A stretch of 64,000 nucleotides of DNA from an uncultured virus (IMG/VR IMGVR_UViG_3300044612_002375). Its lineage: Duplodnaviria; Heunggongvirae; Uroviricota; Caudoviricetes. The stretch lies in IMG/VR virus record IMGVR_UViG_3300044612_002375; one strand, written 5' to 3'. A program made the translations under genes and the position numbers. This document shows positions 2,052 through 53,024 of this stretch, piece by piece; positions within the stretch are counted from its first letter, which is position 1; each line of letters starts with the position of its first letter. Below the pieces are notes generated by a model. That model was not told where the DNA came from. It did no database searches and worked only from the letters and a program-made list of their open reading frames with translations.

Positions 2052-2576
2052 TTATAACACCGTTGCCATTGCTATTACAAACGCAGCATCTACCCCACCG
2101 GCACCAGTAGCACCAGTGTTTCCTTGAATACCTTGAGAACCAGTAGCACCAGTGGCACCAGTATTTCCTGCATTTCCTTGTGGACCAGCGCCACCAAATT
2201 CTACCCAAATATTAGAGGCACCATCTGTTACAGCTGTTAGTAGTTTTCCGGTTCCAGTATCATACCAACGATCACCTGCGGTAGGACCCGTTGTTGCTGT
2301 AGTACCTTGAATAAAATCATAATAAGTTCCACCACCACCACCACCACCGCCTCCACCAGTGTAGGCAATTGTTAGAGTATTACCTGTTGGTGTGACAGAT
2401 ATAGAAGTTCCTCCAGCAACATTTACACCACCAGAAAGACCATTTAAAGTAGCAACATATGTACTAATTGATCCCGATGTGGTTTTATCCCATGCAACAC
2501 CATTATATGTCCAAAGAATACCACCATATGAATATGTTACGCCAGCAGAAGGGGATGGGGGGAAATCAATAGGCAT
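2052..2576 (-). CDS. Short fibre/decoration protein with poly-Gly and collagen-like tail
   Basis: MPIDFPPSPSAG..WTYNGVAW N-terminal module, poly-Gly, GDRWYDTGTG module, C-terminal G-x-y repeats. Confidence 0.7.
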   Translation of the reverse strand: MPIDFPPSPSAGVTYSYGGILWTYNGVAWDKTTSGSISTYVATLNGLSGGVNVAGGTSISVTPTGNTLTIAYTGGGGGGGGGGTYYDFIQGTTATTGPTAGDRWYDTGTGKLLTAVTDGASNIWVEFGGAGPQGNAGNTGATGATGSQGIQGNTGATGAGGVDAAFVIAMATVL

Positions 2577-2593
2577 TGTTCTTAATATTTATG

Positions 2594-4288
2594 TTAGAGT
2601 TGAACCCAAATAAAGCCTGATGCGCCTGTTATGGCTGTATATAAAATTCCAGTATTTGTATTAAACCAACGGTCTCCGGGTATATGGATAGATGGAGCTG
2701 AAATGGCTTCTGTAAATTTTGGAGATGCCGTACCTTGTGTGCTACCATCGACAAATTGAATATAAGATGGGCTACCGCCTGCTCCTGTTAATTCTACTAC
2801 AGAAGGAATTTGTAAAGCAGAAGTTGCAATATCATACTTAAATGATGGAATTGCTTGCAGATCACCACTAACATCATTTGAAGTAAACTGAATGGATCCG
2901 GGGGTAGATTTTACAGTTATTAAATTGGTTACAGTAACTTCACCAAGACCAGTAGAAGGGCTTAATGTAATTCCGGCCCCAGCAACTAATTTTGTTACTG
3001 CGCCTTCCCCACCACCACCCGAAATATTAACAGTAAGATTCTGACCACTGGAAGTAACATTTACTCCAGCACCAGTAAAATTAATATTTCCAACATACTT
3101 GGAAATTCTCTGACCATTGAATAGTGCTGCAAGCCCACCACCACCGGGAACAGAAAGTTTTCCAATATAATCTATGATCTTTTGTGTATCTGCACCTTTA
3201 AACTTACCAAGAATTTTATCAATGTGTTTGGCATCTAAAGAAATTTTATTATCTTTAAGTACTAAAGGATATTCAACATCTACTACTGTAGACTGTCCAT
3301 CTTGTCCTGCAGGACCTACTGGGCCTGCTTCTCCTCTTGGTCCAGCAGGACCTTGAGGGCCCACAGGTCCTCTATTACCTTGATCTCCTTTTTCTCCACG
3401 CGGACCTTGCGGTCCCACGGAGCCTTGAGGTCCAATCTTACCTTCAATTCCATCTTTACCGGGTATTCCTTGGTCACCTTTTGGGCCTTGAATGCCTTGT
3501 AGACCTTGTGGACCAACCAATCCTTGATCGCCCTTATCGCCTTTCTCACCCTTCTCTCCTTGTTTTCCTTTTGGACCTTGGATTCCTTGGAAACCAGGTT
3601 CACCCTGATCTCCCTTTTCTCCTTGATCGCCTTGAATACCTTGAACACCATCTTTACCTTGTTCACCTCTTGGACCCTGTGGGCCCATTGGTCCGGGTTC
3701 ACCTTGTGGACCTTGCAGACCAATTTCTCCTCGTAGACCCTGTTGTCCAATTACTGGAGTAGTTTGCTTTATAATAGTTCTTTCAACTATTTCAATCTTT
3801 GGTGGAACAGGTGGCTTTGAAGCAATGACTGGCTTTGGCTGAACAGGAACAACTTCCTCCAACAAATTTTTAATTTGATTGGAGTTACCATAAAGTTTTA
3901 TAACTTTATCATTATTGTTCTGTATAAAATAGTGTTCAGAAACACCATGCCCAAGTTGGAACTTTTCATCATACTGGCATGCTGTTATTTCTTTTAACAG
4001 AACATTCTGGAATAATGGCCCGAAAGGACGTTTTACCTTAAATATTTTTCCACTAGAGGCAGAATAAGTTTTGGTTGGTTCAAAGTATTCTTTTATCTTT
4101 ACTGAATTTCCTTCAATAAGATACTCTTCACCATCAGTGCTACGAAGAAGCAATTTAGTAATTCCAGAACCAATCTTTACTTTAGTTGGGTTAATTGTCG
4201 ATTCTACAATTATAAATTCACAACCTTGTGGCAGTTCTGGGTGCCATTTGGTTAATTTTAATGATGTTTTGTTCTTTCCAAAGAACAT
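2594..4288 (-). CDS. Collagen triple-helix repeat fibre protein
   Basis: Long uninterrupted Gly-X-Y tract (GPQGEPGPMGPQGPRG...) flanked by globular domains. Confidence 0.85.
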   Translation of the reverse strand: MFFGKNKTSLKLTKWHPELPQGCEFIIVESTINPTKVKIGSGITKLLLRSTDGEEYLIEGNSVKIKEYFEPTKTYSASSGKIFKVKRPFGPLFQNVLLKEITACQYDEKFQLGHGVSEHYFIQNNNDKVIKLYGNSNQIKNLLEEVVPVQPKPVIASKPPVPPKIEIVERTIIKQTTPVIGQQGLRGEIGLQGPQGEPGPMGPQGPRGEQGKDGVQGIQGDQGEKGDQGEPGFQGIQGPKGKQGEKGEKGDKGDQGLVGPQGLQGIQGPKGDQGIPGKDGIEGKIGPQGSVGPQGPRGEKGDQGNRGPVGPQGPAGPRGEAGPVGPAGQDGQSTVVDVEYPLVLKDNKISLDAKHIDKILGKFKGADTQKIIDYIGKLSVPGGGGLAALFNGQRISKYVGNINFTGAGVNVTSSGQNLTVNISGGGGEGAVTKLVAGAGITLSPSTGLGEVTVTNLITVKSTPGSIQFTSNDVSGDLQAIPSFKYDIATSALQIPSVVELTGAGGSPSYIQFVDGSTQGTASPKFTEAISAPSIHIPGDRWFNTNTGILYTAITGASGFIWVQL

Positions 4289-4297
4289 CTATTGTAT

Positions 4298-5683
4298 TTA
4301 GACGTATCCTGAAAGAGGTGCTCTTCTCCAAGAATTTCCTACAGCACAAACATATAGGAAATCATTGTCCCAAGCAATGGATCCAGTAACTCCAGCTGAA
4401 GTGCTTGTAGCTGGTGCAGATGCAGGATTTAATACTATTCTATTTCGAACATGTAGTTCACCAAGAGGAGTAGTTACGCCACCAATACCAACATATCCAG
4501 CACAACTTCCGGTAATCCATGCCGTTTTACCAGATCCTATTAATAATTGAGTGTGTCCCAGTGCTTGATTTTCTGCAATAGCAACATTATCTAATTCACT
4601 ATTAGAAGGTTCATATGCAGAAGCGATTATAACTGAATTATTCAATCCCAGTTGGGTATTATTATTAAATGCATTTAAAAATTTTAATGGTTGATATCCT
4701 ATAATTATATTATTTGATGTTGAGGCACATGTGCTACCTTCACCACTATTATTGCTCAGTGCCTCAGAACCAATTATAACGTTATTTATTGCAGTTACAC
4801 CAGAACCAGCTAACGCTCGATAACCAAAAATTGCTGAATTATCAATCCTGTTAGTTCCAACATTTCCTATATTTGTTCCAAATGCTGTTAAGTTATCAGC
4901 AGAAGATACACCCATACATATATTTTTTCCTACTAGTGTTATATTAGCATCTGGAGCACTAATAGCATTTAAATTATCCATACCAAATACGGTGATGTTA
5001 TTTGTTTGAATTAATTTTTGTAAATTTCTATTACCAACAACTACACTTCCAGTAGTAGGTAAACCACTAGTTAAAAGAACTGTATTTAAATTAGATCCAC
5101 CTACATTAATACAATCATCTGTACTCTTTATATACCAAGTATTTCCAAGTAATATTCTTCCTCCAGCTGCCGTAGCTGTATTTACACTTAATACTGAATT
5201 AAACGTTGGATTATAGTTGTCTGGTTGTCCAGCGGCATTAAAAAGATTATTAAGTACAAGAGAACCGGTTAGGAATGAACCAGTAAGACCGAATTCGGGT
5301 ATAAATGCTCCACTAGAAGAAATGCCGTTGGTAAAAGTTTGTAAAGGACCAAAAATATTTGCTACACCAGTAGTTACACCAGTTACATTTCCAGTCAATC
5401 CATTCCATGTACAAACACCTTGAACATTACCTGTATTGCCGTTATATGACGATACACCTCCAATTGAAGATACTGTAACTGTATTTCCTATTGTACCTAA
5501 TGTAATGTTAGAGCCAGCCGATAAAATAATACTTCCGGTTAAACCATTCCACGTACAGACACCTTGCAAAGCACCTGTTTTACCATTGATAGAAATGGTC
5601 CCATCTGCATTAGAACCCGCAGGTCCAGGTGTTCCGGCTACTCCAAATGGTTGTGTATATACTGTTACGTTAAATTCTGCCAT
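4298..5683 (-). CDS. Tail fibre-like protein
   Basis: QGVCTWNGLTG repeats, NxxIG beta-helix-like repeats, C-terminal GSIAWDNDFLYVC..NSWRR fibre motif. Confidence 0.7.
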   Translation of the reverse strand: MAEFNVTVYTQPFGVAGTPGPAGSNADGTISINGKTGALQGVCTWNGLTGSIILSAGSNITLGTIGNTVTVSSIGGVSSYNGNTGNVQGVCTWNGLTGNVTGVTTGVANIFGPLQTFTNGISSSGAFIPEFGLTGSFLTGSLVLNNLFNAAGQPDNYNPTFNSVLSVNTATAAGGRILLGNTWYIKSTDDCINVGGSNLNTVLLTSGLPTTGSVVVGNRNLQKLIQTNNITVFGMDNLNAISAPDANITLVGKNICMGVSSADNLTAFGTNIGNVGTNRIDNSAIFGYRALAGSGVTAINNVIIGSEALSNNSGEGSTCASTSNNIIIGYQPLKFLNAFNNNTQLGLNNSVIIASAYEPSNSELDNVAIAENQALGHTQLLIGSGKTAWITGSCAGYVGIGGVTTPLGELHVRNRIVLNPASAPATSTSAGVTGSIAWDNDFLYVCAVGNSWRRAPLSGYV

Positions 5684-5686
5684 GTG

Positions 5687-6082
5687 TTATCCTCGTGTTA
5701 CGTCTGGTACTACGTCTATCTTTCCCCGTAAAATTGTTTCTACACCTATTGGGTTTATGGTTTGTGCCTGCACATCGTAAAATACTGGTGTATATGGAGG
5801 AAAAGAAGTGGTATAGGTAGAACCAACCGTTATTGCCACAAATCCACCAGTTCCCGTTGCAGATATACCACCTACAATTCCTTCTGGTTGATAAAAAGTA
5901 TTGCCAGAATTAATATATGTACTATAACTTGCAAAAACTTTTGCAGAATAATAACCTTTACGAACTTGCATTGATAGAGTACAACCAGTAAAATTATATG
6001 TGCCACCAGTTACTCCGGTGACAGAAAATACCCATCTCAGACTATCTCCAACAACAACTGTTTGGTCGTAAATGTTAGACAT
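5687..6082 (-). CDS. Small beta-sandwich virion/fibre adaptor protein
   Basis: YNFTGCTLSMQVRK...YDVQ...ILRGKIDVVPDVTR pattern typical of phage fibre-associated adaptor proteins; GGAG SD. Confidence 0.55.
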   Translation of the reverse strand: MSNIYDQTVVVGDSLRWVFSVTGVTGGTYNFTGCTLSMQVRKGYYSAKVFASYSTYINSGNTFYQPEGIVGGISATGTGGFVAITVGSTYTTSFPPYTPVFYDVQAQTINPIGVETILRGKIDVVPDVTRG

Positions 6083-6094
6083 GTAGGCTCCAAA

Positions 6095-6123
6095 AAATAA
6101 TAACCTATTAAAGGTTATTATTT
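6095..6123 (-). terminator. 12-bp AT-rich hairpin followed by U-run (possible terminator or leader hairpin)
   Basis: AAATAATAACCT-5nt-AGGTTATTATTT perfect inverted repeat between GT2-TPR and fibre genes. Confidence 0.45.
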
Positions 6124-6147
6124 ACAAATATTTATGATTTGCGGCAA

Positions 6148-7380
6148 TTAGAGTTTTACAGCTAAATTTTCTGGACTAATCTTTAAAGTTGTTTTTGGTT
6201 CAGGAATTTTTACTGTTTGCATATTGGCTAAAGTCTGTGCCTGTTGGGCATTTATTTGACCTTGAATCTGGGCAATTGCATTGATATAAGCATTTTTATT
6301 ATTTTCTACTCTTGGACGGTGTTCTTCTGGAAGATATGGTTCCGAAAGAAGTTTTTCACAAGCAGCCAATCCCATGTGATACTTTCCAACATAGAATGCA
6401 GTTGTAGCGACTTCATCTAATAGACCCCATCTATAGTTTGCCATATCTACGAATAGAATGTCATTTTGTGGGGGTGGGATTGTTAGTCCCATGGATGCAA
6501 CTAGGAATGCATTTCTTGGACGCCCATATTTTCTATAAATGCAGGACAAATGATACAAAGATTCTGCTCGATCTGGCTTTGTTTCATATGCGCGCATCAT
6601 GGCATCTGTAATCATTTCAATTGGCTTTTCAAGGATTGTACGACACATACCTACTCTAAGCCAAGAAAAATAAACTTCTTCTGCCCAAGATTCTAGTTCT
6701 GTTCTTTTGATATACTCTTGTTCAGCAATATCAAACATTCTGGAATCAAATGCAGATTGTGCTGCATAAAATTGTTTTCTTGGTTGTTTTGGATCTTCTG
6801 CAAGATACTTCTTTAGAATTTCATAGTCATTCTTATATTTTTCAATATCATTGCCAAATTGTCGAGAACGGCAACCTTCAGTACGAACATCCCAAGCATA
6901 GTCGCCTTCTAATTTTTGAACATTCATTGGTTGACGACAGATGGCATATTCATGGAGAGGTTCTTCATACCACCACTTTGTCTTTCCAATATTAAACAAT
7001 TGTGCGCGATACCATACGAACTCACCGCGTTGAATCTTTACAACGTAACCATCCAATTCGTCATTGAACTTTTCAACAGGAAGAGTTCCAGAGATCATAT
7101 CATCGGCATCGATCATCAGTGCCCATTGTGCTTTGCCTTCACACGCTTCGATAGCCAAAGAACGGTTATGACCAAAGTCTTTCCATTCATGGTCTAGAAT
7201 CTCTCCGGGAATTCCCTTGGAATCAAAGAAACTCTTTATAATTTCCTTGGTATTATCTGTCGATCCTGTATCACAGATTACATAATAGTTAATGAATGGG
7301 GCAACAGATTCAAGACAACGCTGAATATTTGGAGCCTCGTTTTTGACGATCATCGATAAAGCTAACTTGTGCATTTTCAT
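6148..7380 (-). CDS. GT2 glycosyltransferase with C-terminal TPR repeats (SunS/GmaR-like architecture)
   Basis: LSMIVKNEA..CLESV..VICDTGSTDNT..WKDFGHNR..MIDADD..LHE motifs, then helical TPR-like repeats. Confidence 0.85.
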   Translation of the reverse strand: MKMHKLALSMIVKNEAPNIQRCLESVAPFINYYVICDTGSTDNTKEIIKSFFDSKGIPGEILDHEWKDFGHNRSLAIEACEGKAQWALMIDADDMISGTLPVEKFNDELDGYVVKIQRGEFVWYRAQLFNIGKTKWWYEEPLHEYAICRQPMNVQKLEGDYAWDVRTEGCRSRQFGNDIEKYKNDYEILKKYLAEDPKQPRKQFYAAQSAFDSRMFDIAEQEYIKRTELESWAEEVYFSWLRVGMCRTILEKPIEMITDAMMRAYETKPDRAESLYHLSCIYRKYGRPRNAFLVASMGLTIPPPQNDILFVDMANYRWGLLDEVATTAFYVGKYHMGLAACEKLLSEPYLPEEHRPRVENNKNAYINAIAQIQGQINAQQAQTLANMQTVKIPEPKTTLKISPENLAVKL

Positions 7381-11769: not shown

Positions 11770-12812
11770 TCTTCATCCTTTGATAGTGCACTATTATACG
11801 CTTCATCTATGATCCTTGCAAGAAACTTCTTGTCAATAGACTTTTCCTGAATAGTCTCAAGTTCTTCGTGAAGAAGTTGGAGAGTATCTTTATGGACATC
11901 TACCGCCACTAGTTCAGGGTTTGCAGATACCTCTTCGGTCACTGCCAGTTCTGCCACGCCTGCTTCATAGAACTTATCCATGTATTTTTCAAAACTCGCA
12001 GCCTTAGTGCGCTTTTTGATAAAAATCTTGACATAGCAGTCCTTGAATTTTGAATAGTCAAGTTTTTCTGGTTCGTCTTCATTATAATCAAGCGTATAGA
12101 ATAGCTTTTTGTTATTTTCGACAAATACCAGTTCTCTAGCCAAAAAGTCAAATACGTGGAATCCTTTTGGTTCCCAAACATCTGAGAAAGCCATTTGGTA
12201 TTGCGTACCCAGATAATAAATATTGTCACGAGTGGACTTAATATGATAATGCCCAGTAAGAACGTATTCAAACTTGTCGAAGTGTTTGGGGTCATATCCT
12301 TGCTCTATAAAGATACCACGAATACTCTGAAAGCCAAATAATTCCAGATGTCCCATAAGAAGGGAGCATGTGGTATTGGTAATAAATTTTGCTGCCTGTC
12401 CTTCGTTTTCTGGATTGATCCAAGGCAAAAGAGCCACACAACCCGCAGAGGTTTGAATCTCGGTAGGTTCAGAATAGATTTCCCAGTTTTGGTATGGTGC
12501 AACTAACTCATGTAATGAGTTTACATTATTATTATTACGGTAATATGTATCATGGTTACCACAAATAGCAATGCACTTGACTCCCATATCTCTAAGGGGT
12601 TCAAAGAAACGGGTTCTTACTTGGTGAAGCGTTTTGAAATTTATATACTTTCTACGATCAAAAACATCTCCCAGATGGAAGATGGTCTTGATGTTGTTTT
12701 CCTTGAGATAAGGAAACAACTGTTCTTCAAAGAACGATAGAAAGTATTCAAGTACGATAGGTGAGTCTGCTTTATAGCCGAAGTGAGTATCGTTAAGAAT
12801 TACTGCTTTCAT
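11766..12812 (-). CDS. gp47: Recombination endonuclease nuclease subunit (T4 gp47, Mre11/SbcD-like); start re-called at 12812
   Basis: [26 protein letters not shown] phosphoesterase motifs. Confidence 0.95.
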
Positions 12813-13833
12813 ATATTCCTGTTTGTTGTAGAACAAATTCTTTTTTTGCAAGTTTCATATCTTCTTCAATCATCATTTCTGCTAATTGAAATACAGATAT
12901 CTTTGGTTGCCAATTTAATTTTTGTCTTGCTTTTGAAGCATCTCCCAAAAGTTCATCCACCTCAGTTGGACGGAAATACTTTGGGTCCACATTGACATAT
13001 TTTTTATAATCTAATCCAACCAATCCAAATGAATAGTCACAAAAATCTCTAACTGAAATCATTTTTCCAGTTGCAATTACATAATCATCTGGAGTATCTT
13101 GCTGCAGCATTAACCACATAGCCTCAACATAATCCCCAGCATAGCCCCAATCTCGTAGTGAGTCTAAATTTCCAAGAGTTAAAGTTGATTGAAGACCACA
13201 AGCAATTCTAGTAACTGCTCTTGTAATTTTACGAGTTACAAAGGTTTCACCACGGCGGGGACTTTCATGATTAAAAAGAATGCCGCAGGAAGCATGCATA
13301 TCATAACTTTCTCTATAATTTCTAGTCAAGTAATGTCCGTATACTTTGGCACATCCATATGGAGAACGTGGATAGAATGGGGTAGTTTCTTTTTGGGGAA
13401 CTTCCATAACTTTTCCAAACATTTCACTACTTGATGCTTGATAATACTTTATTTTGTTTCCAGTTATATCTTGGTATTGTCTAATGGCTTCCAATACATT
13501 CAATGTACCAACAGCATCGGTATTAGTTGTAAAAATTGGCATATCAAATGACAATTGAACGTGACTCTGTGCGCCCAAATTATACACTTCAGTTGGATTA
13601 TGCTTTATTAAAATATTTGATATACTAGTATAATCTGTCAAATCCCCATAATGCAAAAATAACTGTTTATTATGTATTTTTGCATCATTGATTAGATGGT
13701 CTATTCTGTCCGTATTAATTGAAGATGACCTACGAATCAAACCATGTACTTCATATCCTTTTGAAATCAATAAGTCAGCAAGATAGCTGCCATCTTGACC
13801 AGAAATTCCTGTAATGAGTGCTACTTTTTTCAT
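12793..13833 (-). CDS. gmd: GDP-mannose 4,6-dehydratase
   Basis: [54 protein letters not shown]. Confidence 0.96.
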
Positions 13834-14399: not shown

Positions 14400-14427
14400 A
14401 ATATATACTCAAACAAATAAAAATCAA
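14400..14427 (-). promoter_or_regulatory. Sigma70-like promoter TTGATT-N16-TATATT, 6 nt before the gp55 GTG
   Basis: Read directly; no room for an SD. Confidence 0.6.
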
Positions 14428-14663
14428 TAATTAATTTTTATTTTAATTGTCCCACCATTCGAATGTATTAAATCTGCATTATTAAAATTTTGATACATAT
14501 TTAATGATTTTAAATATCGTTGTATAAACAAATTACCAGCAATAAATGGTCTATTTTCAATATCAATAAATGTCATTTTAGATATTATTTTTTTATTTTT
14601 ATAAAAATCTTCACCGTTACCATCACACATTATTAAAGTTGTATTGTTAAAATTAAGAGTCAT
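14424..14663 (-). CDS. Hypothetical protein
   Basis: 79-aa ORF overlapping the upstream GT2 gene, closing the sugar island. Confidence 0.5.
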   Translation of the reverse strand: MTLNFNNTTLIMCDGNGEDFYKNKKIISKMTFIDIENRPFIAGNLFIQRYLKSLNMYQNFNNADLIHSNGGTIKIKINY

Positions 14664-15390
14664 TTAAAATAAATGTAGAAGATCTATTACCCATTTGATC
14701 TGCAAATGCGGCTTTATATTGGGTATATACATATGAAGGCCAGCATGGGCCAGAAACTCTATATATTTGGCCCAAAATAGACGAGTCTAAATTCATTGTT
14801 TGTGGATATGGGTATCTTACCAAGTTATTTTTAAATAAACTATTTTTATAAATTACCTGGGATCCATCGACTCTGTTTTGTGGATTAATTGGTTCAAAAT
14901 AATTATTTAAATCATAAAAAGATTTATAATTATTTTGTTGTACTTCGGTTCTTGAATTTGAATTTAAATAAAATTCTTTTGATGGGTCATAAAAATAAAC
15001 TCTATTGTAAAACCATTCTAAAGATTTATTCTGTTTTATAAAAAAATCTAATTGCAAAAACGAGTCTTTGACCAAAGCATCATCATCACATAATATTGTT
15101 GTAAAATCTGCCTCAGAGTTTTTTATTGCCTCGTTTATATAATGACCATGCGATGATCCACCTTTTTTAATTTTTGTCTCATCTGACTCGTAAATAGCGC
15201 TATATTTTACTTTTTTATTGTCAAAACCATAAGAAAATAAAATATCTTTAAAAGAATCATCTCCTGAATCATCTATAAAATGCAATTCCCAGTTGTCATA
15301 GTTTAAATTTTTAATACTGTGTAGCGCATTTAAAACAATTTTTGGTCTTTTATAGTAAGCCAAAACAATTAAAAATTTTGTATTGCTCAT
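14653..15390 (-). CDS. Glycosyltransferase family 2
   Basis: YKRP..ALHSI..NWELHFIDDSGD..INEAI..LCDDD. Confidence 0.8.
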   Translation of the reverse strand: MSNTKFLIVLAYYKRPKIVLNALHSIKNLNYDNWELHFIDDSGDDSFKDILFSYGFDNKKVKYSAIYESDETKIKKGGSSHGHYINEAIKNSEADFTTILCDDDALVKDSFLQLDFFIKQNKSLEWFYNRVYFYDPSKEFYLNSNSRTEVQQNNYKSFYDLNNYFEPINPQNRVDGSQVIYKNSLFKNNLVRYPYPQTMNLDSSILGQIYRVSGPCWPSYVYTQYKAAFADQMGNRSSTFILNDS

Positions 15391-16022
15391 AAACCACCTG
15401 ATACTTTTATTATACTACCATTGATGTAAGGCGTTTCAATAATTAAATTAATTATTTTTCCTAAATCTTCACAGTCACCAAAACATTTATTTGGTATTGT
15501 ATTTTTAACATTTTCTAAAATTTTTTCTGGAACTTTATATGTTAGACCCCCATCAAAATATCCAAGTTGAATCGTGTTTGCTGTGACATTATATTTTGCA
15601 TTTTCCATTGCAAAAATTTTTGTCGCCGTTTCACAAAAAGATTTACAAGAGGTATAGACACACGTACCTTTTATTGGATTTGAAGTCAAAATAGAAGACA
15701 TGTATATTACTCTTCCACCTGTATTTTTCCAATTACTTGCACAAGATTTTAAAACATTTAAATATCCTTTAATGTTTACATTTAAAGAATGTTCCAATTC
15801 TTCATCGTTTATATTTGTTATTAAATTATCATAATTTACTACAGAAAAATATAAAACAATATTTGAATTTTTAATATGTTTATCAACTTCTGAATAATTT
15901 CTTACATCACAATCCTTTGAAGATAGTGGACTTATTGTATTGGATTTTATATAAGGTATTGTTTTTGATGCAAGACCACTTGAGCCACCAAATATTACAA
16001 TATTATTATTTTTCAAGTTCAT
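15387..16022 (-). CDS. Short-chain dehydrogenase/reductase (FabG-like); start re-called at 16022
   Basis: IFGGSSGLA Rossmann motif, YTSCK (YxxxK), NVTANTIQLG, YING..I.V.GG. Confidence 0.8.
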   Translation of the reverse strand: MNLKNNNIVIFGGSSGLASKTIPYIKSNTISPLSSKDCDVRNYSEVDKHIKNSNIVLYFSVVNYDNLITNINDEELEHSLNVNIKGYLNVLKSCASNWKNTGGRVIYMSSILTSNPIKGTCVYTSCKSFCETATKIFAMENAKYNVTANTIQLGYFDGGLTYKVPEKILENVKNTIPNKCFGDCEDLGKIINLIIETPYINGSIIKVSGGL

Positions 16023-16881
16023 AAAAATTTTTCGAAGATAGATCTTTTTCTGCAAATTTTCCATACCAAGCTTCGGAGAACATTGGACTAAAATATTTGT
16101 CGCATCCCTCAAAATAATAGTGAGTTACCTGACTATATCTCGATCTATTTGGATCTCTTATAACATCACCACCGTGGATCAAGTTTGCTGCCCAAACCAA
16201 AACTTGGCCTTTTTTGCAAACAAATGTTTTTTGCTCCATTTTTTTAGTTTCAACCAATTGTCTTACAAATTCTTCATACTCAGCGTAGCTGTCAAATTGT
16301 TTTCCATATTCTGGAGCTTTTATTTTTAAATCATAAAAATCAAATATTGGCAATTTATGACTCTTAGGAACAAAAATTAGAGACCCATTGTTTTCATCCA
16401 TGTCTTCCAAAGCAACCCAAGCAGCAGCCAACCATCTATGTGGCATGGAGTGAAAATGTAAAACATCACTATGAAGTGGCTGGTTGCTTCCATAATTAAA
16501 TGTTATTGTTTGGAAAGGAAGTGGTTTTTTTTGATAAAGAGTTGTTAAAAAATTAAGTATTTTTTTATTTAAAGACAGCGATCTTAATAATTTACTTTGT
16601 TTCCAGCCTTCAAATATTCTTTTTCCCTTCGAATAATGATAACCAGATTCTTGTGTCTTAGTTTCATCTTTATTGTTTATTTCATCAATTTCATTTTTAA
16701 ATTGTTCTAATTCTTCATCGGATAAATTTAAATCTAAAACCACATACCCATCTTCGTGAAATTGAACAGCCAAATCTTGTTCTTCTTTTGATAAATTTTG
16801 TGTTTTTAATAGGTCATAAAAAAACGGCGATTCACACCAAGGCCAATTTGTTGATTCAATTTGCGTTTGATACTTTTTCAT
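16006..16881 (-). CDS. Phytanoyl-CoA dioxygenase (PhyH)-family Fe(II)/2-oxoglutarate dioxygenase
   Basis: FHEDGYVV, PLHSD, WVALEDMDENNGSL..VPKSH, LIHGG. Confidence 0.88.
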   Translation of the reverse strand: MKKYQTQIESTNWPWCESPFFYDLLKTQNLSKEEQDLAVQFHEDGYVVLDLNLSDEELEQFKNEIDEINNKDETKTQESGYHYSKGKRIFEGWKQSKLLRSLSLNKKILNFLTTLYQKKPLPFQTITFNYGSNQPLHSDVLHFHSMPHRWLAAAWVALEDMDENNGSLIFVPKSHKLPIFDFYDLKIKAPEYGKQFDSYAEYEEFVRQLVETKKMEQKTFVCKKGQVLVWAANLIHGGDVIRDPNRSRYSQVTHYYFEGCDKYFSPMFSEAWYGKFAEKDLSSKNFYELEK

Positions 16882-17448
16882 TTATTTTTTCCTCAAAAAT
16901 GCTGGATCTACTGATTTATTTAGAACAGTGTTACGATTTCTTTCTTTGTGTTTTTTTAAAGGATTTCCTAACCATATACTCCATGGTGATAAATTGTTTT
17001 TGGTGTAAACAAAGCTTTTTGCTCCTATCAAACAACCTTCTGGTATTTTTACATCCGGCATTACAATTACGTCTGATGCAACTCCAGAAAAATCATTAAA
17101 AACAATGTCTCCTCTAAAAATTTTATTTTGTCCCCAATAATCATTAACGGGCCCATAGTCACCGCTATAATCTTCAGATGCACAAAATAACTTGGAGCCA
17201 TAACCAACAAAACACCAACTTCCGAGAGTTATTGTATGTTCTTTCCCCCCACTCAAAACGGAGTGGGAACATATTTGAATATTATTTCCAGTTTTTAATC
17301 CTGTAGTTATCCAAGTAAAAGGATCTATTCTAACATTATCCCCCAGATAAACTAGTTTAGGGTTTGCAAATAAAACGTTTTGTCCTATAAAAACATTTTG
17401 ACCACAATAACCTAAATGTTTTTTTATTTCTTCATTCCATCCCAGCAT
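16882..17448 (-). CDS. Hexapeptide-repeat sugar acyltransferase; start re-called at 17448
   Basis: CGQNVFIG..LGDNVRID..IPEGCLIGAKSFV..WLGNP left-handed beta-helix pattern. Confidence 0.85.
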   Translation of the reverse strand: MLGWNEEIKKHLGYCGQNVFIGQNVLFANPKLVYLGDNVRIDPFTWITTGLKTGNNIQICSHSVLSGGKEHTITLGSWCFVGYGSKLFCASEDYSGDYGPVNDYWGQNKIFRGDIVFNDFSGVASDVIVMPDVKIPEGCLIGAKSFVYTKNNLSPWSIWLGNPLKKHKERNRNTVLNKSVDPAFLRKK

Positions 17449-18124
17449 AAGTAATCTCGTATATATGGTGTTCGTGATTGTTTGCAGCAACAAATATTGA
17501 ATGTTTTTTTAAATTTAAATTATTTTGTTTACAATAGTCAATTAAATGTTTTTCTTTTATAAAACTAATTCCATAAAAATTATCCCATATATCGGGTAAA
17601 TAATCTATTAATTTGTCTTCGTCTGATATAAAACAAGAAAAAATTATGCTTGCATTTTTATTTTTTTTAAAAACATTTTTTAAATTATTTAAAATTTTAT
17701 GTATTTCATTCACAGGTAAGTGTGTAAAAACAGATATCAAAACAATTATATCAATTTTTTTATTTAAAACTTCTTTTAAATTTTCATCTATAGTACCAAA
17801 ATAAAGTCTTTCATCATTTAAATATTCTTTAGCTAAGTTTAAACGTTTATTTCCGTGACTTGAATTTGTATCTAAACCGTAATAAAAAAAATTTTTTAAT
17901 CTTTCACTAATAAAATTTCCTAAAATTCCAGCACCGCATCCGTAATCCAACACACAAATTCCGTCAATAAATTTATTTTTTATTGGTTCTAAAAAATAAC
18001 TCATACCTATAGAAGCCAGCGGTTCTTCATTTGTTCCACCATATAATATTTTAGGAGGAACTTCTATTATTGGTTTTTGAGTTTTATTTTTCCAAAAATT
18101 ATTCCATATTTTATCTTGAATCAT
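17432..18124 (-). CDS. Class I SAM-dependent methyltransferase
   Basis: VLDYGCGAG motif I; ISVFTHL. Confidence 0.85.
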   Translation of the reverse strand: MIQDKIWNNFWKNKTQKPIIEVPPKILYGGTNEEPLASIGMSYFLEPIKNKFIDGICVLDYGCGAGILGNFISERLKNFFYYGLDTNSSHGNKRLNLAKEYLNDERLYFGTIDENLKEVLNKKIDIIVLISVFTHLPVNEIHKILNNLKNVFKKNKNASIIFSCFISDEDKLIDYLPDIWDNFYGISFIKEKHLIDYCKQNNLNLKKHSIFVAANNHEHHIYEITYAGME

Positions 18125-18858
18125 ATTCCAACTCTATATAAAAAAGGTTTGCTTAAATTTTCTTCTGTAACATACTGAGGTACATTTTGGCACTGATGTT
18201 TTTTATAATTTTGTGCCAAAGGAGAAAAAGACGGATGATTTACAATTTTAAATCCAGCTCTCTTTATACAATTAGTGAATTCTACTTCTGATCCTTCGTA
18301 AGCCGCATAATCTGTACTATGAAAATATCTTAACTTATTTGTGGACGGATCTTTTACAACATTTTTTAAAATATAATTTGTTGCTACACCAAACCCGCCT
18401 CCAGCGTGTGGTATTGATGAAAAAGATATTGGTGAAAAAGAAATAAATCCCAAATTATTATCAATTTTAAATAAAAAATCAACCTCTTCCATATAATTTG
18501 GATGAAAAATTGTTATATCATCTTCATTAAAAATGTAATAATTATACCTGTCTTCGGTTAAGCTATATCCACGAGAAAAAGCTCCAAATGAACCTCCGAC
18601 ATTTTCTCTGTGAGTAACGTAAATTTTTCCATTTTTTATTTTTTTATTGTTAAAAGAATTTATAAAATTTTTTGATTCTTCTCTCCCATCATCATTATTA
18701 ACAATCAAAACATCCATTTTTATTCCTGGATCTATATTTGATTCTATTTCATTTAATGAATAATTTAAATATTCTTTTGTTTGTTCGTAAGAAGAAAAAT
18801 TATTATTATTTTGTCTTCGTGGACCCAAATAAGTTGCTATAATTTTTAAACAGCTCAT
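18121..18858 (-). CDS. Putative glycosyltransferase (GT-A-like)
   Basis: LIVNND, RENVGGSFGAF, YIFNEDD; TAATG coupling to upstream gene. Confidence 0.55.
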   Translation of the reverse strand: MSCLKIIATYLGPRRQNNNNFSSYEQTKEYLNYSLNEIESNIDPGIKMDVLIVNNDDGREESKNFINSFNNKKIKNGKIYVTHRENVGGSFGAFSRGYSLTEDRYNYYIFNEDDITIFHPNYMEEVDFLFKIDNNLGFISFSPISFSSIPHAGGGFGVATNYILKNVVKDPSTNKLRYFHSTDYAAYEGSEVEFTNCIKRAGFKIVNHPSFSPLAQNYKKHQCQNVPQYVTEENLSKPFLYRVGI

Positions 18859-20021: not shown

Positions 20022-20022
20022 A

Positions 20023-49529: not shown

Positions 49530-49530
49530 C

Positions 49531-50455: not shown

Positions 50456-50681
50456 TTGGGAGTTTCTTGGTTTTGCCATTCTTTAGTAAATGGCGGTCTC
50501 TGGCTTCAATTTGAATTTTTTCAATTATTGGTCTGGTAATAAGTTTACCAGCCATACTTGGGTCAATATTCATTTCTTCAGATAATTCAAGTATACAATC
50601 CATAAAACTTAGTTTTGTAGATTTTACTCTATCTAAAACTTTATTTGAAAATTTTTCTTTTGCTGCTTCGTCTATATACAT
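50448..50681 (-). CDS. gp33: Late-promoter co-activator (T4 gp33); start re-called at 50681
   Basis: EKFS..V....K...SFMDCI....NID....KLI..P..EKIQ.EA....LL....KLPI; upstream of gp32. Confidence 0.85.
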   Translation of the reverse strand: MYIDEAAKEKFSNKVLDRVKSTKLSFMDCILELSEEMNIDPSMAGKLITRPIIEKIQIEARDRHLLKNGKTKKLPID

Positions 50682-50687
50682 GGTTTT

Positions 50688-50715
50688 ATTATATACGTTA
50701 TATTCCAATAATCAA
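50688..50715 (-). promoter_or_regulatory. Sigma70-like promoter TTGATT-N16-TATAAT, 6 nt before gp33 ATG
   Basis: Read directly. Confidence 0.65.
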
Positions 50716-50764
50716 TAATTAAATACATCTAAATATTCATGAACTAATTAACGAGGTCTAATCC

Positions 50765-51712
50765 ATGCCATCAGGAACAGGCGTAACATCAGATGCGATT
50801 CCAATTCAAACAGCAGGTATAACCGCATATATTGCGACCGATTATGTCGGTACAGGCGGTATTACAGGTCACTACCAACTCATTAAACTTGGGTATGGTG
50901 TCGATGGATCTGCGACAGTTGTAAATTCAGCAAATCCACTTCCAGTAACAATTGCCACTGGAATGACTGCCACTATTTCTGGATTCACAGGAACCATTGA
51001 TGTACGTGGTATAGGTGGTGCTGCAGTGGTGGTGTCTGGTTCAGTAGTCACAACTGGTCTAACTTCATCTCCATTATTTGTTAGAACTTTTACAGGATCA
51101 CAAGTAGAAGTCACTGGCGGTCGTTATCTAGGAAAATCTAACGATTCGGTTTCTGTATGGGGTCCAAATGGTCTCACATACATTTATGTAAATTTAGTAG
51201 ACCAAGCTGGAAATTCTTTAAGTTACACCAATGGTGCACTAAACGTTAACGTTGCTGGTGCAACAATCAATGCCACCATTCCTTCTACCGTTACTGTAGT
51301 AGGTCTTTCCGGTGCTACTGCTGTAGGAGTTAACGTAGGTAACACTGTTGGAATTAATGATACAAATATTCTAACTGGTATGACTGCCATCTATGGTCAG
51401 GTCGTAGGTCTAAGAAGTGATCTTGGTGGATTTGCTGTAATTCGTCCAACTGGTGGAACTGCTTATAGACTAACAAGCACAACAACTGCAGCAGCATTTG
51501 CTGGATTTACTTGTAAGAGTGGAATAAATGTAAAAGCTGCATCTGCGAATACCGATGTAATCTACATAACTACTGATACAACTGCCTCTCTTACTTCTCT
51601 TGGATACGAATTAGATCCCGGAGAATCGTTATTCATAGATATAATAAATTCTAGTCTTTTGGCCCACAGAGCAAAATCAGGTTCTCAAATTATTAGTTAC
51701 CTAGCGACCTAA
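50765..51712 (+). CDS. Putative virion structural protein (Gly/Thr-rich)
   Basis: CTAAATA late promoter and GAGG SD upstream; NPLPV repeat; C-terminal KAASANT..IY...GYELDPGES domain. Confidence 0.65.
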   Translation: MPSGTGVTSDAIPIQTAGITAYIATDYVGTGGITGHYQLIKLGYGVDGSATVVNSANPLPVTIATGMTATISGFTGTIDVRGIGGAAVVVSGSVVTTGLTSSPLFVRTFTGSQVEVTGGRYLGKSNDSVSVWGPNGLTYIYVNLVDQAGNSLSYTNGALNVNVAGATINATIPSTVTVVGLSGATAVGVNVGNTVGINDTNILTGMTAIYGQVVGLRSDLGGFAVIRPTGGTAYRLTSTTTAAAFAGFTCKSGINVKAASANTDVIYITTDTTASLTSLGYELDPGESLFIDIINSSLLAHRAKSGSQIISYLAT

Positions 51713-51713
51713 T

Positions 51714-53024
51714 ATGTCTTTATTTTCGTTAAATACAGCAAAAACATCGTATTCATATACAACACAATTTGTTGGTAATACGGCAGATCCTTGTTTTACA
51801 AAAGGTAATCTGAATGGTTCTGCTAATATTTTTGTTACTGGTAACTCGCTGTTCTTTGATTATTCTGAAGTAAAAACTGGAAATGATTTAAAGTTTTTAA
51901 ATAAATTCTTCAATGGTCTTACAACTGGAAGTACTTTTAATTTTTCTAGTGGAGTATATTATAACAATGCCACTTCTTCTAGTATAAATTGGAATGGTAC
52001 ATTACAATTACAAGGTATATCCGGAACTTTTAAACAATATATCTCATGCTCTGGTGTTACGGGGACTGCAGCTCTTACTGGTGGATATTACGTAAGTAAA
52101 AATTTTACGAATCCTATACAATTTACTGCAACGACGGGCAATACTGCCCATATATTAATATCAAATACACCTAGAAGCAGTCCATTAAATTTTGATTTCT
52201 TTGGCGTATATGGATCTGATTATGGATTTGAAGAATACGTAGAAGTTTTGGGAAGTACATTAAACTCTGGAAGACTTAAAGTAAAAAATTACATAAAATT
52301 AAATGATGATACCGAAGTAATTTATCTTGTAAATTCGGTAACCAATGAGAATAGATTTTTTAATAAATCACAAATTGATTTACTCCACAGAGGTATTCCT
52401 TCGTTAGCAGTTTCTGCCACTTCACCTCTCCAAAATGGAGTAATTAAAATTGCAGGAGCAACTTCCGGTATTGTTTCTATGTTGTTGGAAAATCAAAATG
52501 CAATGCAACATGCATTAAGACAACAACAAGATACTGCAAACGTATATTACTATTATCCAAATTCTACGTTAAAAACAATAAACGCAAATACTGAAAACAT
52601 AGTTGACTATAGAAACATTTCTATTTCGTATTCAAATGTCTTTATCCTAAAGGTTGTAACATCATATTTTATCTCCTATAATACTGATGGATTTAATATT
52701 TCAGAATTTATTGGAACTAATCAATATAATGATATTATCTTTGTGGATAACACACAAACAGAGACACTTTCAATAGTGAGCAGTACAGCTGTCGCACCAA
52801 TCAAAATAGATCTTTCTGATGCACAGAATAAAGGTTCTATTATAAACCTATTTTTGGATAGCAATTGCACACAGCCACTAATAGAAAACTATTATCTTCT
52901 TGGTGAACCTGGATATGAAGGAGCTTGCTTTATCTATCTTGTAGATAGAGCAAACTCATCAAAAACTGTATTTATGCAAATTACTAAGAATACAACCAAT
53001 GTTCTAAGAATTGCTGTTGCTTAA
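51714..53024 (+). CDS. Hypothetical, probably virion protein
   Basis: 436-aa ORF co-transcribed with 50765; GxT-rich. Confidence 0.6.
   Translation: MSLFSLNTAKTSYSYTTQFVGNTADPCFTKGNLNGSANIFVTGNSLFFDYSEVKTGNDLKFLNKFFNGLTTGSTFNFSSGVYYNNATSSSINWNGTLQLQGISGTFKQYISCSGVTGTAALTGGYYVSKNFTNPIQFTATTGNTAHILISNTPRSSPLNFDFFGVYGSDYGFEEYVEVLGSTLNSGRLKVKNYIKLNDDTEVIYLVNSVTNENRFFNKSQIDLLHRGIPSLAVSATSPLQNGVIKIAGATSGIVSMLLENQNAMQHALRQQQDTANVYYYYPNSTLKTINANTENIVDYRNISISYSNVFILKVVTSYFISYNTDGFNISEFIGTNQYNDIIFVDNTQTETLSIVSSTAVAPIKIDLSDAQNKGSIINLFLDSNCTQPLIENYYLLGEPGYEGACFIYLVDRANSSKTVFMQITKNTTNVLRIAVA

Follow-up and report, generated by a model that had tools for sequence, protein, structure and literature searches.

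The window, a stretch of 64,000 nucleotides, belongs to an uncultured T4-like myovirus of fresh water (a lake) and makes up its replication and virion part. A glycosyltransferase (GT) gene, GT2_410, starts 2 nt past the stop codon of regA, where the block of replication genes ends; the small gene unk131 and a set of fibre genes lie beyond it, and most other sugar genes form an island elsewhere in the window (Table 1).

Table 1. Features of the window discussed in the text
Feature	Coordinates	Strand	Description
col174	2052..2576	-	Small Gly/Thr-rich protein; Pfam Collagen 8e-4, under cut-off
Collagen-like tail fibre	2594..4288	-	564 aa; Pfam Collagen 7.9e-26; tail-fibre PHROGs
tail461	4298..5683	-	Variable fibre/tail protein; phrog_17312 tail protein at C-terminus, 4e-7
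unk131	5687..6082	-	131 aa, beta-rich, conserved GT partner protein; phrog_1084
GT/fibre module spacer	6083..6147	-	Intergenic; CATAAATA (late-promoter-like) and 12-bp AU-rich hairpin, then U-run
GT2_410	6148..7380	-	Soluble GT-A + C-terminal TPR-like GT of SgtA/SunS/ThuS/GmaR type; candidate protein O-glycosyltransferase
Gmd	12793..13833	-	GDP-mannose 4,6-dehydratase; PF16363 6e-140
Sugar island	14424..23899	-	Hypervariable, 11-kb, ~30% GC, between gp55 and uvsY; Pfam
gp18 tail sheath	34585..35886	-	Short, 433 aa; phrog_23
unk315	50765..51712	+	Orphan; 13 G-hydrophobic-T-[A/G] sites
unk436	51714..53024	+	Orphan, co-transcribed with unk315; 7 G-x-T

The glycosyltransferase and its neighbourhood

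GT2_410 matches PF00535 (1.2e-12) and, in PDB profile searches, GmaR (1.9e-14), SunS (5e-10) and ThuS (6e-6), while residues 254–303 match a designed TPR (CTPR; 7.5e-7); the PDB sequence and profile searches gave nothing beyond these. The best Foldseek hits of its AF2 model (pLDDT 87.4) are SunS and ThuS over 390–394 of 409 columns (E 7e-15, TM 0.57–0.59), with TarS as runner-up (TM 0.33, E 1.8e-8), which bears out the SunS-type assignment made in the earlier note for this TPR-GT2. With the SunS equivalog TIGR04195 the score is 35 bits, far below the cut-off of 350. The DADD motif (D90, D92 and D93) is invariant in 25 sequences, and no TM-like segment was found.

The closest characterised relative of GT2_410 is SgtA, whose acceptor is exactly G-x-Thr. 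PMC7157674 describes this enzyme as a GT-A+TPR protein encoded directly upstream of bclA3, which in vitro transfers beta-O-GlcNAc onto Thr of GPT-repeat (collagen) peptides. The 358-aa Clostridioides difficile SgtA-type ORF, retrieved by a primer sequence published in the same paper, aligns with GT2_410 in BLASTP at 26% identity over 287 aa (E 1.3e-16), and the gene 3' of it contains 60 G-x-T and 23 GPT. Because the likeness is just 26%, donor and acceptor are not transferable from SgtA to GT2_410. Since GT2_410 matches both the SunS/ThuS fold and the SgtA sequence, it is reasonable to infer a phage-encoded protein GT with a G-x-Thr precedent. GT2_410 most probably works in the cytoplasm as a protein O-glycosyltransferase akin to SgtA, GmaR and SunS. 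The best 120 of its 3052 homologs share at least 65% identity. Beside two homologs from bacteria, 34 and 29% identical, no gene is obviously G-x-T-rich except for a 784-aa ORF (13 versus 6.8).

The gene order regA–GT–unk131–variable fibre is kept in all four relatives' loci examined, and the GT is present in 4/4 records holding regA. Unk131 follows the GT directly in each of the four relatives (46–48% identity); its G32-x-T34 is invariant, it has five G-x-T against 2.4 expected (p 0.06), and, as a lead from the atlas, 16% of the members in one cluster carry BppU_N. Unk131 may be a baseplate or fibre adaptor. The fibre slot 3' of unk131 is hypervariable, with non-homologous fibre genes in relatives, and GT2_410 is more conserved than any fibre protein. 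The spacer, whose hairpin stands between GT2_410 and the fibre genes, folds as RNA at -13.4 kcal/mol (z -3.0) and, judging by its motifs, would carry a promoter and a terminator.

Five GTs of the window lie above the Pfam cut-off (three GT2, one GT10 and one GT11); a weak GT25-like gene and seven enzymes that tailor sugars come in addition, in agreement with the roughly seven glycosyltransferases and NDP-sugar enzymes reported earlier. Gmd adjoins gp47 in the loci of two relatives (L087 and L088) and is missing there in two others (L090 and L091). The island encodes a GT2, an SDR, a PhyH dioxygenase, a hexapeptide acyltransferase, a methyltransferase, a DegT aminotransferase, an epimerase/dehydratase, a further GT2 and GT10-, GT11- and GT25-like proteins. 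It occupies the same locus in G002, G004 and G005; the content in G004 is 23–58% identical or unrelated, with flanks 98–100% identical. None of the island proteins has a TM-like segment, and the island contains no membrane protein resembling a flippase, polymerase, ligase or polyprenyl-phosphate transferase.

Distribution of G-x-T in virion proteins

The earlier note had proposed that G-x-[T/S/C] saturates the structural proteins, core ones included. Every tetrapeptide quoted there was found in the gene named: GKTG, GLTG (three times), GNTG, GVTT (twice), GVTA, GVTG, GVCT (twice) and GSCA in tail461; GITA, GITG, GMTA (twice), GFTG, GLTS, GATA and GGTA in unk315; GLTY, GTTA, GVTG (twice), GATG, GATV and GATA in the sheath; GVCG and GFCG in gp23. 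The raw density of G-x-[STC] in 79 newly called ORFs is likewise higher in virion proteins (1.72–1.81 per 100 aa) than in non-structural ones (0.74). However, the contrast between structural and replication proteins is reproduced by shuffled sequences, and relative to 1000 within-protein shuffles the virion proteins stand at 1.23-fold (106 versus 86.1) and 1.08-fold (87 versus 80.8), compared with 1.12-fold (57 versus 51.0) in non-structural proteins. The apparent saturation is mostly amino-acid composition.

What exceeds composition is G-x-T, with 105 occurrences in virion proteins versus 78.9 by shuffling (z 2.9; rank 6 of 356 residue pairs at the same spacing) and 19 versus 18.5 in non-structural proteins. 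Neither G-x-S (74 versus 76.7, 0.97-fold) nor G-x-C (14 versus 11.4, not significant) is enriched in virion proteins by the same shuffles, and the two GVCT are one duplicated repeat, which leaves the proposed degeneracy for Ser and Cys unsupported. The extended motif G-x-[STC]-[GA] gives 36 versus 15.8 and 23 versus 13.3 in virion proteins and 7 versus 5.2 in non-structural ones.

The entire virion excess of G-x-T resides in five proteins: unk315 (13 versus 6.2, p 0.0025), tail461 (14 versus 6.7, p 0.005), col174 (11 versus 6.5, p 0.022), sheath (10 versus 5.3) and unk436 (7 versus 3.1, p 0.028), although no single excess passes a Bonferroni correction for 79 proteins. The remaining virion proteins show no excess (50 versus 50.8), and the capsid, portal, tube, neck and baseplate proteins are without it. 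In gp23, which is exposed more than any other protein, G-x-[STC] occurs 11 times versus 7.5 (z 1.5) and G-x-T only twice.

Unlike in the window phage, neither the sheaths nor the virion proteins of T4 (57 versus 61.8), S-SKS1 (27 versus 21.4) and P-SSM2 (54 versus 50.3), phages that gave no match in a search with the window GT, have an excess of G-x-T. The excess is therefore not generic to T4-like structures.

In the fibre module, tail461 begins with four copies of an N-G-x-T-G-x-hydrophobic repeat, and 0/14 of its G-x-T sites fall within G-X-Y runs. Col174 has a collagen-like run of 12 triplets with Thr at five of the Y positions (GNTGATGATG...), and its residues 78–127 resemble residues 502–564 at the C-terminus of the 564-aa fibre (36.5% identity). 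A triplet census of that fibre found Thr at Y in none of 51 G-X-Y triplets (Q 21, K 7, R 5 and V 4 among others), and its G-x-[STC] count is not in excess of shuffling (9 versus 11.7). The fibres in the same slot in relatives include one with long GPT runs (L091; G-x-T 55 versus 25.9) and two with GATGATGATG runs (L087 and L088; 9 versus 5.6 and 10 versus 5.9); that of the most divergent relative is a Q-type collagen with no excess (7 versus 5.9). Thr-collagen can thus be neither the only nor the conserved substrate of the GT, since the 564-aa fibre and that of the most divergent relative are without it. The jumbo phage Tunturi_5, an independent lineage, shares with the window phage a GT (31.5% identical) beside a G-x-T-rich fibre, here of 1469 aa (79 versus 30.1). 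Collagen-like runs hold 66 of these 79 sites, leaving 13 versus 11.7 outside them, and the Tunturi_5 portal, a minor tail protein and a second fibre show no excess.

Sheath, unk315 and unk436

In these three families G-x-T is enriched about 2–2.5-fold, an excess that is specific to the spacing and holds down to 28–45% identity; the corresponding ratios are 0.94–1.03 for G-T, 0.70–0.85 for G-x-x-T and 0.5–0.7 for G-x-V. The mean is 10.3 versus 5.1 in 80 sheath sequences, 12.9 versus 5.7 in 33 unk315 sequences (window plus 32 homologs, 43–100% identity) and 7.4 versus 3.0 in 52 unk436 homologs (28–100% identity). In each family the excess traces to about 8–11 ancestral sites, with new sites in divergent homologs close to the composition expectation, and replacement of motif Thr is not more biased to Ser than that of other Thr (0.28 versus 0.40 and 0.21 versus 0.26).

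The C-terminal half of the sheath aligns with T4 gp18 residues 465–643 (E 1.2e-13). Four of its five Thr conserved at 90% or more (T69, T93, T205 and T328) fall in G-x-T, and G326-A-T328, within the conserved domain aligned to gp18, is clade-invariant. In unk436 four G-x-T sites are kept in 17–23 of 23 aligned sequences. Unk315 has no Pfam, PHROG or PDB match; its sites keep their positions among homologs, x being hydrophobic and the +3 residue small. AF2 models the single chain poorly (pLDDT 60.8). The three-copy model scored 0.55 and the best of its controls 0.00, with runs agreeing to 46% or more and a pLDDT of 61 or higher; 20 of the 30 solved pairs and 1 of the 23 single chains reach the mark applied. 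In this model the chains are intertwined, with several motif segments at inter-chain contacts, suggesting that unk315 is probably a homotrimeric fibre- or spike-like virion protein.

Possible acceptors of GT2_410

From the observed fold and kinship of the enzyme, the synteny and the motif statistics, the fibres are probably sugar-coated, and a fibre glycosylation system like that of SgtA and BclA3 is likely; a protein acceptor, specificity for Thr and a part for the island can be inferred. Before assembly, GT2_410 would add the first sugar to Thr in the Gly-x-Thr contexts of fibre proteins made by the phage itself. Candidates for the acceptor are col174 with its collagen-like GNT/GAT triplets, tail461 with its N-G-x-T-G repeats and, in relatives, fibres with GPT/GAT runs. 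The island, with GDP-6-deoxyhexose and amino-sugar enzymes and fucosyltransferase-like GTs, all soluble, may lengthen this sugar into a strain-specific glycan. Taken whole, with glycosylation of fibre G-x-Thr and possible extension by the island, this explanation is preferred tentatively. Counting against it are the lack of Thr at Y in the 564-aa fibre, the place of the GT next to regA, the low TIGR04195 score, the modest likeness to SgtA, the neighbours of the bacterial homologs, p-values that fail correction and the G-x-T excess in some non-virion proteins. The G-x-T sites of the sheath, trimeric unk315 and unk436 could be either acceptors or purely structural.

The excess might instead be entirely structural, with Gly ending a turn, a hydrophobic x packing inward and Thr opening a beta-strand or filling the collagen Y position in trimeric fibres and sheath, and the GT acting on a protein of the host, on a small peptide that is secreted, as SunS does, or on some other acceptor early or midway in infection. 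The conserved positions and their flanking residues, the ancestral origin of the sites, the unbiased replacement of Thr, the inter-chain contacts in the unk315 model and the gp18-like setting of G326-A-T328 all favour this alternative. The junction of the GT with regA and the hairpin parting it from the fibres suit expression in the early or middle phase, or a target outside the virion, as well as they suit fibre glycosylation. Such a structural origin is nevertheless rather unlikely, given the restriction of the excess to Thr and to one spacing, its absence from the three control phages and the acceptor of SgtA; Pfam annotation of the window also showed no gene for a glycocin-type precursor, a transporter or a thiol-disulfide oxidoreductase.

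It is less probable again that the island, possibly with the GT, remodels the host surface (LPS/O-antigen-like conversion or superinfection exclusion) or modifies DNA rather than the virion. In its treatment of cyanomyovirus clusters rich in GTs (GT10, GT11 and GT25) and NDP-sugar epimerases, PMC12801897 reads them as modifying the host cell surface or protecting DNA, and it describes P-SSM2 with such genes; P-SSM2 lacks the motif excess, against the link between motif and island drawn in the earlier note. With its hypervariable content, low GC and fixed position, the island cassette also resembles O-antigen loci. However, membrane proteins for flipping, polymerising or ligating are absent from it, GT10- and GT11-type enzymes extend glycans and do not initiate them, and a conserved protein-type GT beside fibres would be left unexplained; for the GT itself, this alternative is compatible with fibre glycosylation.

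A general O/S-glycosylation sequon G-x-[T/S/C], bearing an island-made glycan over the whole virion and its core, is not supported and appears improbable: the three conserved non-fibre families, the sheath Thr, the suggestion of a conserved substrate for an enzyme conserved beyond any fibre, and a SunS/ThuS fold that permits Cys acceptors in principle are outweighed by the shuffle results for Ser, Cys, gp23 and the virion proteins beyond the five, and by the confinement of the Tunturi_5 excess to collagen runs. The earlier reading, as a whole, is partly supported, as regards a SunS-type, phage-encoded protein GT with a G-x-Thr precedent.

Among non-virion proteins, an excess of G-x-T was observed in uvsW (4 versus 1.1) and in the Tunturi_5 terminase (9 versus 2.5).

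Distribution of the G-x-T motif

The earlier note had described G-x-[T/S/C] as saturating the virion proteins and read it as a virion-wide O/S-glycosylation sequon. Every tetrapeptide that it quoted is present in the sequence, but most of the virion proteins show no enrichment of the motif beyond composition. Counts were taken over the 79 ORFs of the window, called as longest non-overlapping ORFs, and are given as observed versus expected, with expectations from 1000 shuffles per protein. G-x-[STC] occurs 106 versus 86.1 times in securely annotated virion proteins, 87 versus 80.8 times in probable virion proteins and 57 versus 51.0 times in non-structural proteins. The raw density is 2.4-fold higher in virion proteins (1.7-1.8 per 100 aa) than in non-structural proteins (0.74 per 100 aa); since the shuffled counts track the observed counts, this contrast is reproduced by composition alone. 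Gly, Thr and Ser are abundant in the virion proteins of the window, and the saturation seen by eye in such Gly/Thr-rich proteins is mostly composition.

G-x-T is the sole combination of residue and spacing that stands out in the virion proteins (105 versus 78.9, z 2.9, rank 6 of 356 pairs). The proposed S/T/C degeneracy is not borne out, with G-x-S at 74 versus 76.7 and G-x-C at 14 versus 11.4; the neighbouring spacings G-T and G-x-x-T are at 0.90x and 0.76x of expectation, and G-x-T in non-structural proteins is at 19 versus 18.5. The excess lies in five proteins (unk315, tail461, col174, the sheath and unk436; see the table), and without them the virion count is 50 versus 50.8, so that the motif is not virion-wide either. 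None of the per-protein p-values survives correction for 79 tests, and the value of 0.0165 obtained for the helicase uvsW indicates the noise level of the per-protein test. Local composition was rejected as the cause of the excess because shuffling within 30-aa blocks keeps the signal (p 0.0075-0.05 for the five proteins) and the neighbouring spacings are not enriched. Both cited G-x-C strings of gp23 (GVCG and GFCG) fall within a Gly/Ser/Tyr-rich stretch at residues ~120-185. An 1819-aa ORF with 3.5% Cys and RCC1-like repeats (PF13540 and PF25390, below cut-off) shows no G-x-T excess, and its G-x-[STC] count is 29 versus 32.2.

Features of the window, with G-x-T counts as observed versus shuffle-expected
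Feature	Coordinates (strand)	Description	G-x-T
unk315	50765-51712 (+)	315-aa protein	13 vs 6.2
tail461	4298-5683 (-)	461-aa fibre	14 vs 6.7
col174	2052-2576 (-)	protein with collagen-like triplets	11 vs 6.5
Sheath	34585-35886 (-)	gp18	10 vs 5.3
unk436	51714-53024 (+)	436-aa protein	7 vs 3.1
unk131	5687-6082 (-)	131-aa protein	5 vs 2.4 (borderline)
51-triplet collagen fibre	2594-4288 (-)	564 aa	
GT-TPR	6148-7380 (-)	candidate protein O-glycosyltransferase	
Gmd	12793-13833	counted with the sugar island (Pfam)	
Sugar island	14424-23899	GC ~30%; with Gmd: GDP-mannose dehydratase, SDR, dioxygenase, hexapeptide acyltransferase, methyltransferase, DegT aminotransferase, epimerase/dehydratase, five further GTs (Pfam)	
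Virion genes		gp23, gp20, gp21, gp22, gp18, gp19, gp13-15, gp6, gp25, gp53, gp48 (Pfam/PHROG)	
Packaging, replication and regulatory genes		terminase gp16/17, gp44/62/45, gp46/47, regA, uvsY, uvsW, gp32, gp33, gp55 (Pfam/PHROG)	
gp23	27238-28692 (-)		
Tail-tube matches	26631-27158, 33475-34041, 34044-34583, 47596-48192	PHROG 45	
TnsA-like ORF	47183-47614 (+)	endonuclease, PF08722 (2.4e-21)	
RCC1-like ORF	53809-59268 (-)	1819 aa	
CBM_5_12 protein	61470-61751 (-)	93 aa, carbohydrate-binding module	

Pfam and PHROG annotation of the 79 ORFs identifies the phage as a T4-like myovirus. Its gp23 reaches no more than 53% identity with those of isolated phages, cyanomyoviruses giving the best matches, and no nucleotide-level match was found among isolated phages; viral metagenome contigs include many relatives, both close and distant. 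The G-x-T excess recurs among homologs. The 33 unk315 sequences (the window and 32 homologs at 43-100% identity) contain 10-15 G-x-T each, with a mean of 12.9 versus 5.7, while the means are 10.3 versus 5.1 for 80 sheath sequences (identity down to 36%) and 7.4 versus 3.0 for 52 unk436 homologs (28-100% identity). Specificity for Thr and for a gap of one residue holds across these families, with G-T at 0.94-1.03x, G-x-x-T at 0.70-0.85x, G-x-S at 0.86-1.13x and G-x-V at 0.5-0.7x. It consists mostly of a core of positionally conserved sites: conservation is 0.78-0.79 for motif Thr and 0.53-0.55 for other Thr, and new G-x-T sites in divergent homologs appear in about the number expected from composition. 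Since family members are not independent, this pattern points to purifying selection on a small number of ancestral sites rather than many events. The replacement of motif Thr by Ser versus Val is the same as for other Thr and has no discriminating power.

The G-x-T excess is not generic to T4-like particles. The counts are 57 versus 61.8 (0.92x) in 31 virion proteins of T4, 27 versus 21.4 (1.26x) in nine of S-SKS1 and 54 versus 50.3 (1.07x) in 14 of P-SSM2, and those of the respective sheaths are 1 versus 4.7, 5 versus 5.7 and 10 versus 7.3. Together with the GT-TPR enzyme, enrichment is seen in this clade and, in collagen-like runs only, in a fibre of the jumbo phage Tunturi_5; the comparison covers only two independent lineages with the enzyme and these three phages without it. 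Within the clade, no relative was found in which the locus is covered and the enzyme is absent; the sole record without it (G003) likewise lacks regA. The Tunturi_5 large terminase (L108 1-1914) has 9 G-x-T versus 2.5 expected, and non-virion proteins can thus share an excess.

The GT-TPR enzyme and known glycosylation systems

The enzyme (about 410 aa) contains a GT2 domain (PF00535). PDB-wide searches with the single protein and with a 25-sequence profile produced hits only with GmaR (1.9e-14), SunS (5e-10), ThuS (6e-6) and a designed TPR (CTPR; 7.5e-7), the last falling on residues 254-303. The AF2 model (pLDDT 87.4) comprises a GT-A beta/alpha core followed by ten helices, and the helices at residues 177-387 form a TPR-like C-terminal domain with structural matches to CTPR and OGT-TPR. 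Foldseek places SunS and ThuS at ranks 1-6 (E 7e-15 to 4e-13, TM 0.57-0.59, full-length chains over 390-394 columns), with TarS as the runner-up (1.8e-8, TM 0.33). For the DxD metal/nucleotide-sugar motif, an IDADD sequence aligns with the DADD/DADE/DADN motifs of SgtA, GmaR and SunS, and Asp90, Asp92 and Asp93 are invariant among the 25 sequences.

In a pairwise BLASTP search the enzyme is 26% identical over 287 aa (query 3-273, subject 1-264, E 1.3e-16) to an SgtA-type ORF, an alignment longer than those to GmaR or SunS. This ORF was fetched from metagenome contigs with a primer from PMC7157674, its 358-aa length agrees with that of SgtA and the gene that follows it encodes 60 G-x-T, 23 of them GPT. 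According to PMC7157674, SgtA of C. difficile (358 aa) consists of a GT-A domain and C-terminal TPRs, sgtA lies directly upstream of bclA3, which encodes a collagen-like glycoprotein of the exosporium, and SgtA transfers beta-O-GlcNAc in vitro onto Thr in peptides that represent the collagen-like GPT region; the first sugar of BclA3 is extended by other enzymes. The window enzyme resembles SgtA in its domain order and size (410 aa), and the genes of both precede genes for collagen-like or fibre proteins; the precedent for an acceptor is the Thr of Gly-x-Thr triplets, on which, by analogy, the window enzyme might act. It differs in being phage-encoded and located in the cytoplasm of a freshwater host, in the conserved 131-aa protein (unk131) that intervenes between it and the fibres, in that the largest collagen of the window is without Thr and in that many candidate sites lie outside collagen (N-G-x-T-G repeats, sheath and unk315). 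No literature connecting SgtA/BclA3 with phages was found in the papers searched.

The glycocin S-/O-glycosyltransferases SunS and ThuS (PDB entries 7MSN, 7MSP and 7MSK) are the best full-length structural match and share the domain order, the length class and a similar GT-A N-terminal half (5e-10). However, G-x-C is unenriched in the window, and Pfam/PHROG annotation of the 79 ORFs identified no precursor peptide, C39 transporter or thiol-disulfide oxidoreductases, which make up a glycocin cluster (PMC12457901). Assignment as a SunS equivalog was rejected, with TIGR04195 scoring 35.1 bits against a cut-off of 350 and matching residues 8-94 only. GmaR of Listeria monocytogenes, the best PDB sequence match, is a 637-aa flagellin O-GlcNAc transferase/antirepressor with GT, TPR, linker and antirepressor domains, and acts in the cytoplasm on a structural protein that polymerises (PMC9638930). 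The window enzyme shares the GT domain followed by TPR but has neither the linker nor the antirepressor domain; only the GT domains align (6-115 to 13-121), and a GmaR-type bifunctional protein was likewise rejected. Of the earlier interpretation, a protein-type glycosyltransferase with a G-x-Thr precedent is retained, and the virion-wide S/T/C motif is not.

The enzyme has 3052 homologs, the best 120 of which are at least 65% identical, and is thus more conserved than its neighbours. No cyanophage homologs were found among isolated phages. Bacterial homologs occur at only three loci in the scan, including a phage contig assigned to a MAG, and their neighbourhoods are uninformative. A 3067-base genome contig (L092) encodes enzyme residues 142-409 at 100% identity and is binned in a lake Terrimicrobiaceae MAG; either this is phage DNA that was binned wrongly, or it hints at the host.

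Gene order and downstream fibres

All four relatives' loci examined have the order regA, enzyme, 131-aa protein and a non-homologous fibre gene, and all four records with regA also carry the enzyme. GPT/GAT runs are present in the downstream fibres of three of the four relatives. The variable fibre of L091 has long GPT runs and N-G-x-T-G repeats (G-x-T 55 versus 25.9), those of L087 and L088 have GATGATGATG runs (9 versus 5.6 and 10 versus 5.9) and the remaining one, from the most divergent relative (L090), is a Q-type collagen without G-x-T excess (7 versus 5.9). Within the window, Thr is absent from all Y positions of the 51-triplet collagen fibre and present in five of 12 triplets of col174, which lies three genes away from the enzyme; tail461 contains four N-G-x-T-G repeats. 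No relatives of tail461 or unk315 were found among isolated phages. The best isolated-phage match to the enzyme, from Tunturi_5, adjoins a 1469-aa tail fibre with 79 G-x-T versus 30.1 expected, of which 66 lie within collagen-like runs; outside the runs the count is 13 versus 11.7. The portal, minor tail protein and second fibre of Tunturi_5 have no G-x-T excess, and its sheath was not found with PF04984. In G004 (L087 6998-9350) the enzyme gene is duplicated in tandem, with both copies before the 131-aa gene; the products (410 and 372 aa) are 91% and 60% identical to that of the window.

The enzyme gene starts 2 nt past the regA stop and is followed, before the 131-aa gene, by CATAAATA and then by a 12-bp AU-rich hairpin (-13.4 kcal/mol, z -3.0), which was folded separately and is not listed by the sigma-70/terminator scan. 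The enzyme therefore closes the replication-gene block, which counts against a simple operon of fibre genes. The T4 late-promoter consensus TATAAATA occurs at a chance-level frequency (10 versus 9.7).

The reading tentatively preferred, with a likelihood that falls a little short of even, is that the window phage has a fibre-glycosylation system resembling SgtA/BclA3. Mycobacteriophages, for which glycosylated phage particles have so far been documented, modify their own virion proteins with phage-encoded glycosyltransferases and carry the glycans on C-terminal extensions of capsid and tail-tube subunits (Freeman et al. 2023, as cited in PMC12619734 and PMC12801897). In contrast, the capsid and tube proteins of the window have no motif excess, and the candidate targets are the fibres. 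If the enzyme does modify fibres, very abundant lake phages (3052 enzyme homologs) would decorate their receptor-binding organelles with sugars, the genes for which are swapped between near-identical genomes, and this would matter for host range, for resistance to recognition by hosts or grazers and for the reading of fibre diversity from sequence only. A clean assay is on offer, with one soluble enzyme, short G-x-T peptides and the published protocol of the nearest relative, which for SgtA uses HEPES at pH 7.5, Mn2+ and UDP-GlcNAc according to PMC7157674; the peptides named as test substrates are GNTGATGATG and the SINGKTGALQ type.

Structural context of the sites and the sugar island

A purely structural motif, combined with a non-virion target of the enzyme, is possible though on the unlikely side, and the model of unk315 bears on it. 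This protein matched no known family, and profile searches of the PDB and Atlas gave insignificant spike or shaft leads only. The monomer model (pLDDT 60.8) is too poor for site mapping, while in the three-copy model the chains form an intertwined trimer that has a central coiled coil (score 0.55 against 0.00 for the best control, with a run agreement of at least 46% and a pLDDT of at least 61); 20 of 30 solved pairs and one of 23 single chains reached the mark, counts that hold only roughly for unk315. Several motif segments lie within the modelled inter-chain contacts, which favours a structural role of the hydrophobic x without deciding that of the Thr. In the sheath, Gly326-Ala-Thr328 is clade-invariant and belongs to the conserved C-terminal domain, which can be aligned to residues 465-643 of T4 gp18, where the equivalent residues are G-D-K.

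A narrower chance, and on present evidence an unlikely one, is given to G-x-Thr as a true sequon of an abundant freshwater T4-like clade, in which GT-TPR would prime fibres and also conserved sites of the contractile sheath and of the trimeric 315- and 436-aa proteins, and the island would complete strain-specific 'phage serotypes'. A bacterial virus would then carry a swappable glycan coat, with a logic like that of O-antigen diversity. 

The uvsY-gp55 locus is hypervariable, and each relative has a different low-GC gene set there, even where the flanks are 98-100% identical. Among the relatives compared (L104, L105 and L106), one with such flanks has island genes that are unrelated to those of the window or share 23-58% identity with them, and in two more distant ones the interval holds ~10-20 wholly different genes with a GC content of 0.20-0.33. 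No TM-like segments were found in the island proteins, and an all-soluble island would fit stepwise glycosylation in the cytoplasm, which does not in itself prove the acceptor.

Use of the island on the host surface or on DNA, which is partly compatible with fibre glycosylation, seems improbable. In its favour, PMC12801897 describes LPS/cell-wall gene clusters in cyanomyoviruses such as P-SSM2 and S-SCSM2R, and cyanophage clusters of this type, which like the island combine GT2/GT10/GT11/GT25 with NDP-sugar epimerases in T4-like aquatic phages, are interpreted there as modifying the host surface or DNA. Unlike the window, the cyanophage isolates yielded no GT-TPR homolog, and G-x-T in P-SSM2 is close to expectation (54 versus 50.3). 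The virion-wide sequon first proposed is very doubtful, the motif being neither virion-wide nor S/T/C.

Among the four ORFs that match the tail-tube family, 33475-34041 and 34044-34583 are 36% identical, indicating several tube-like paralogs in this phage. The TnsA-like ORF, which runs opposite to the gp48-like gene and overlaps its start, may be a mobile or homing element. In the most divergent relative, a 35%-identical copy of the 93-aa CBM_5_12 protein is encoded at L090 12569-12853, with gp45 and gp46 on either side.
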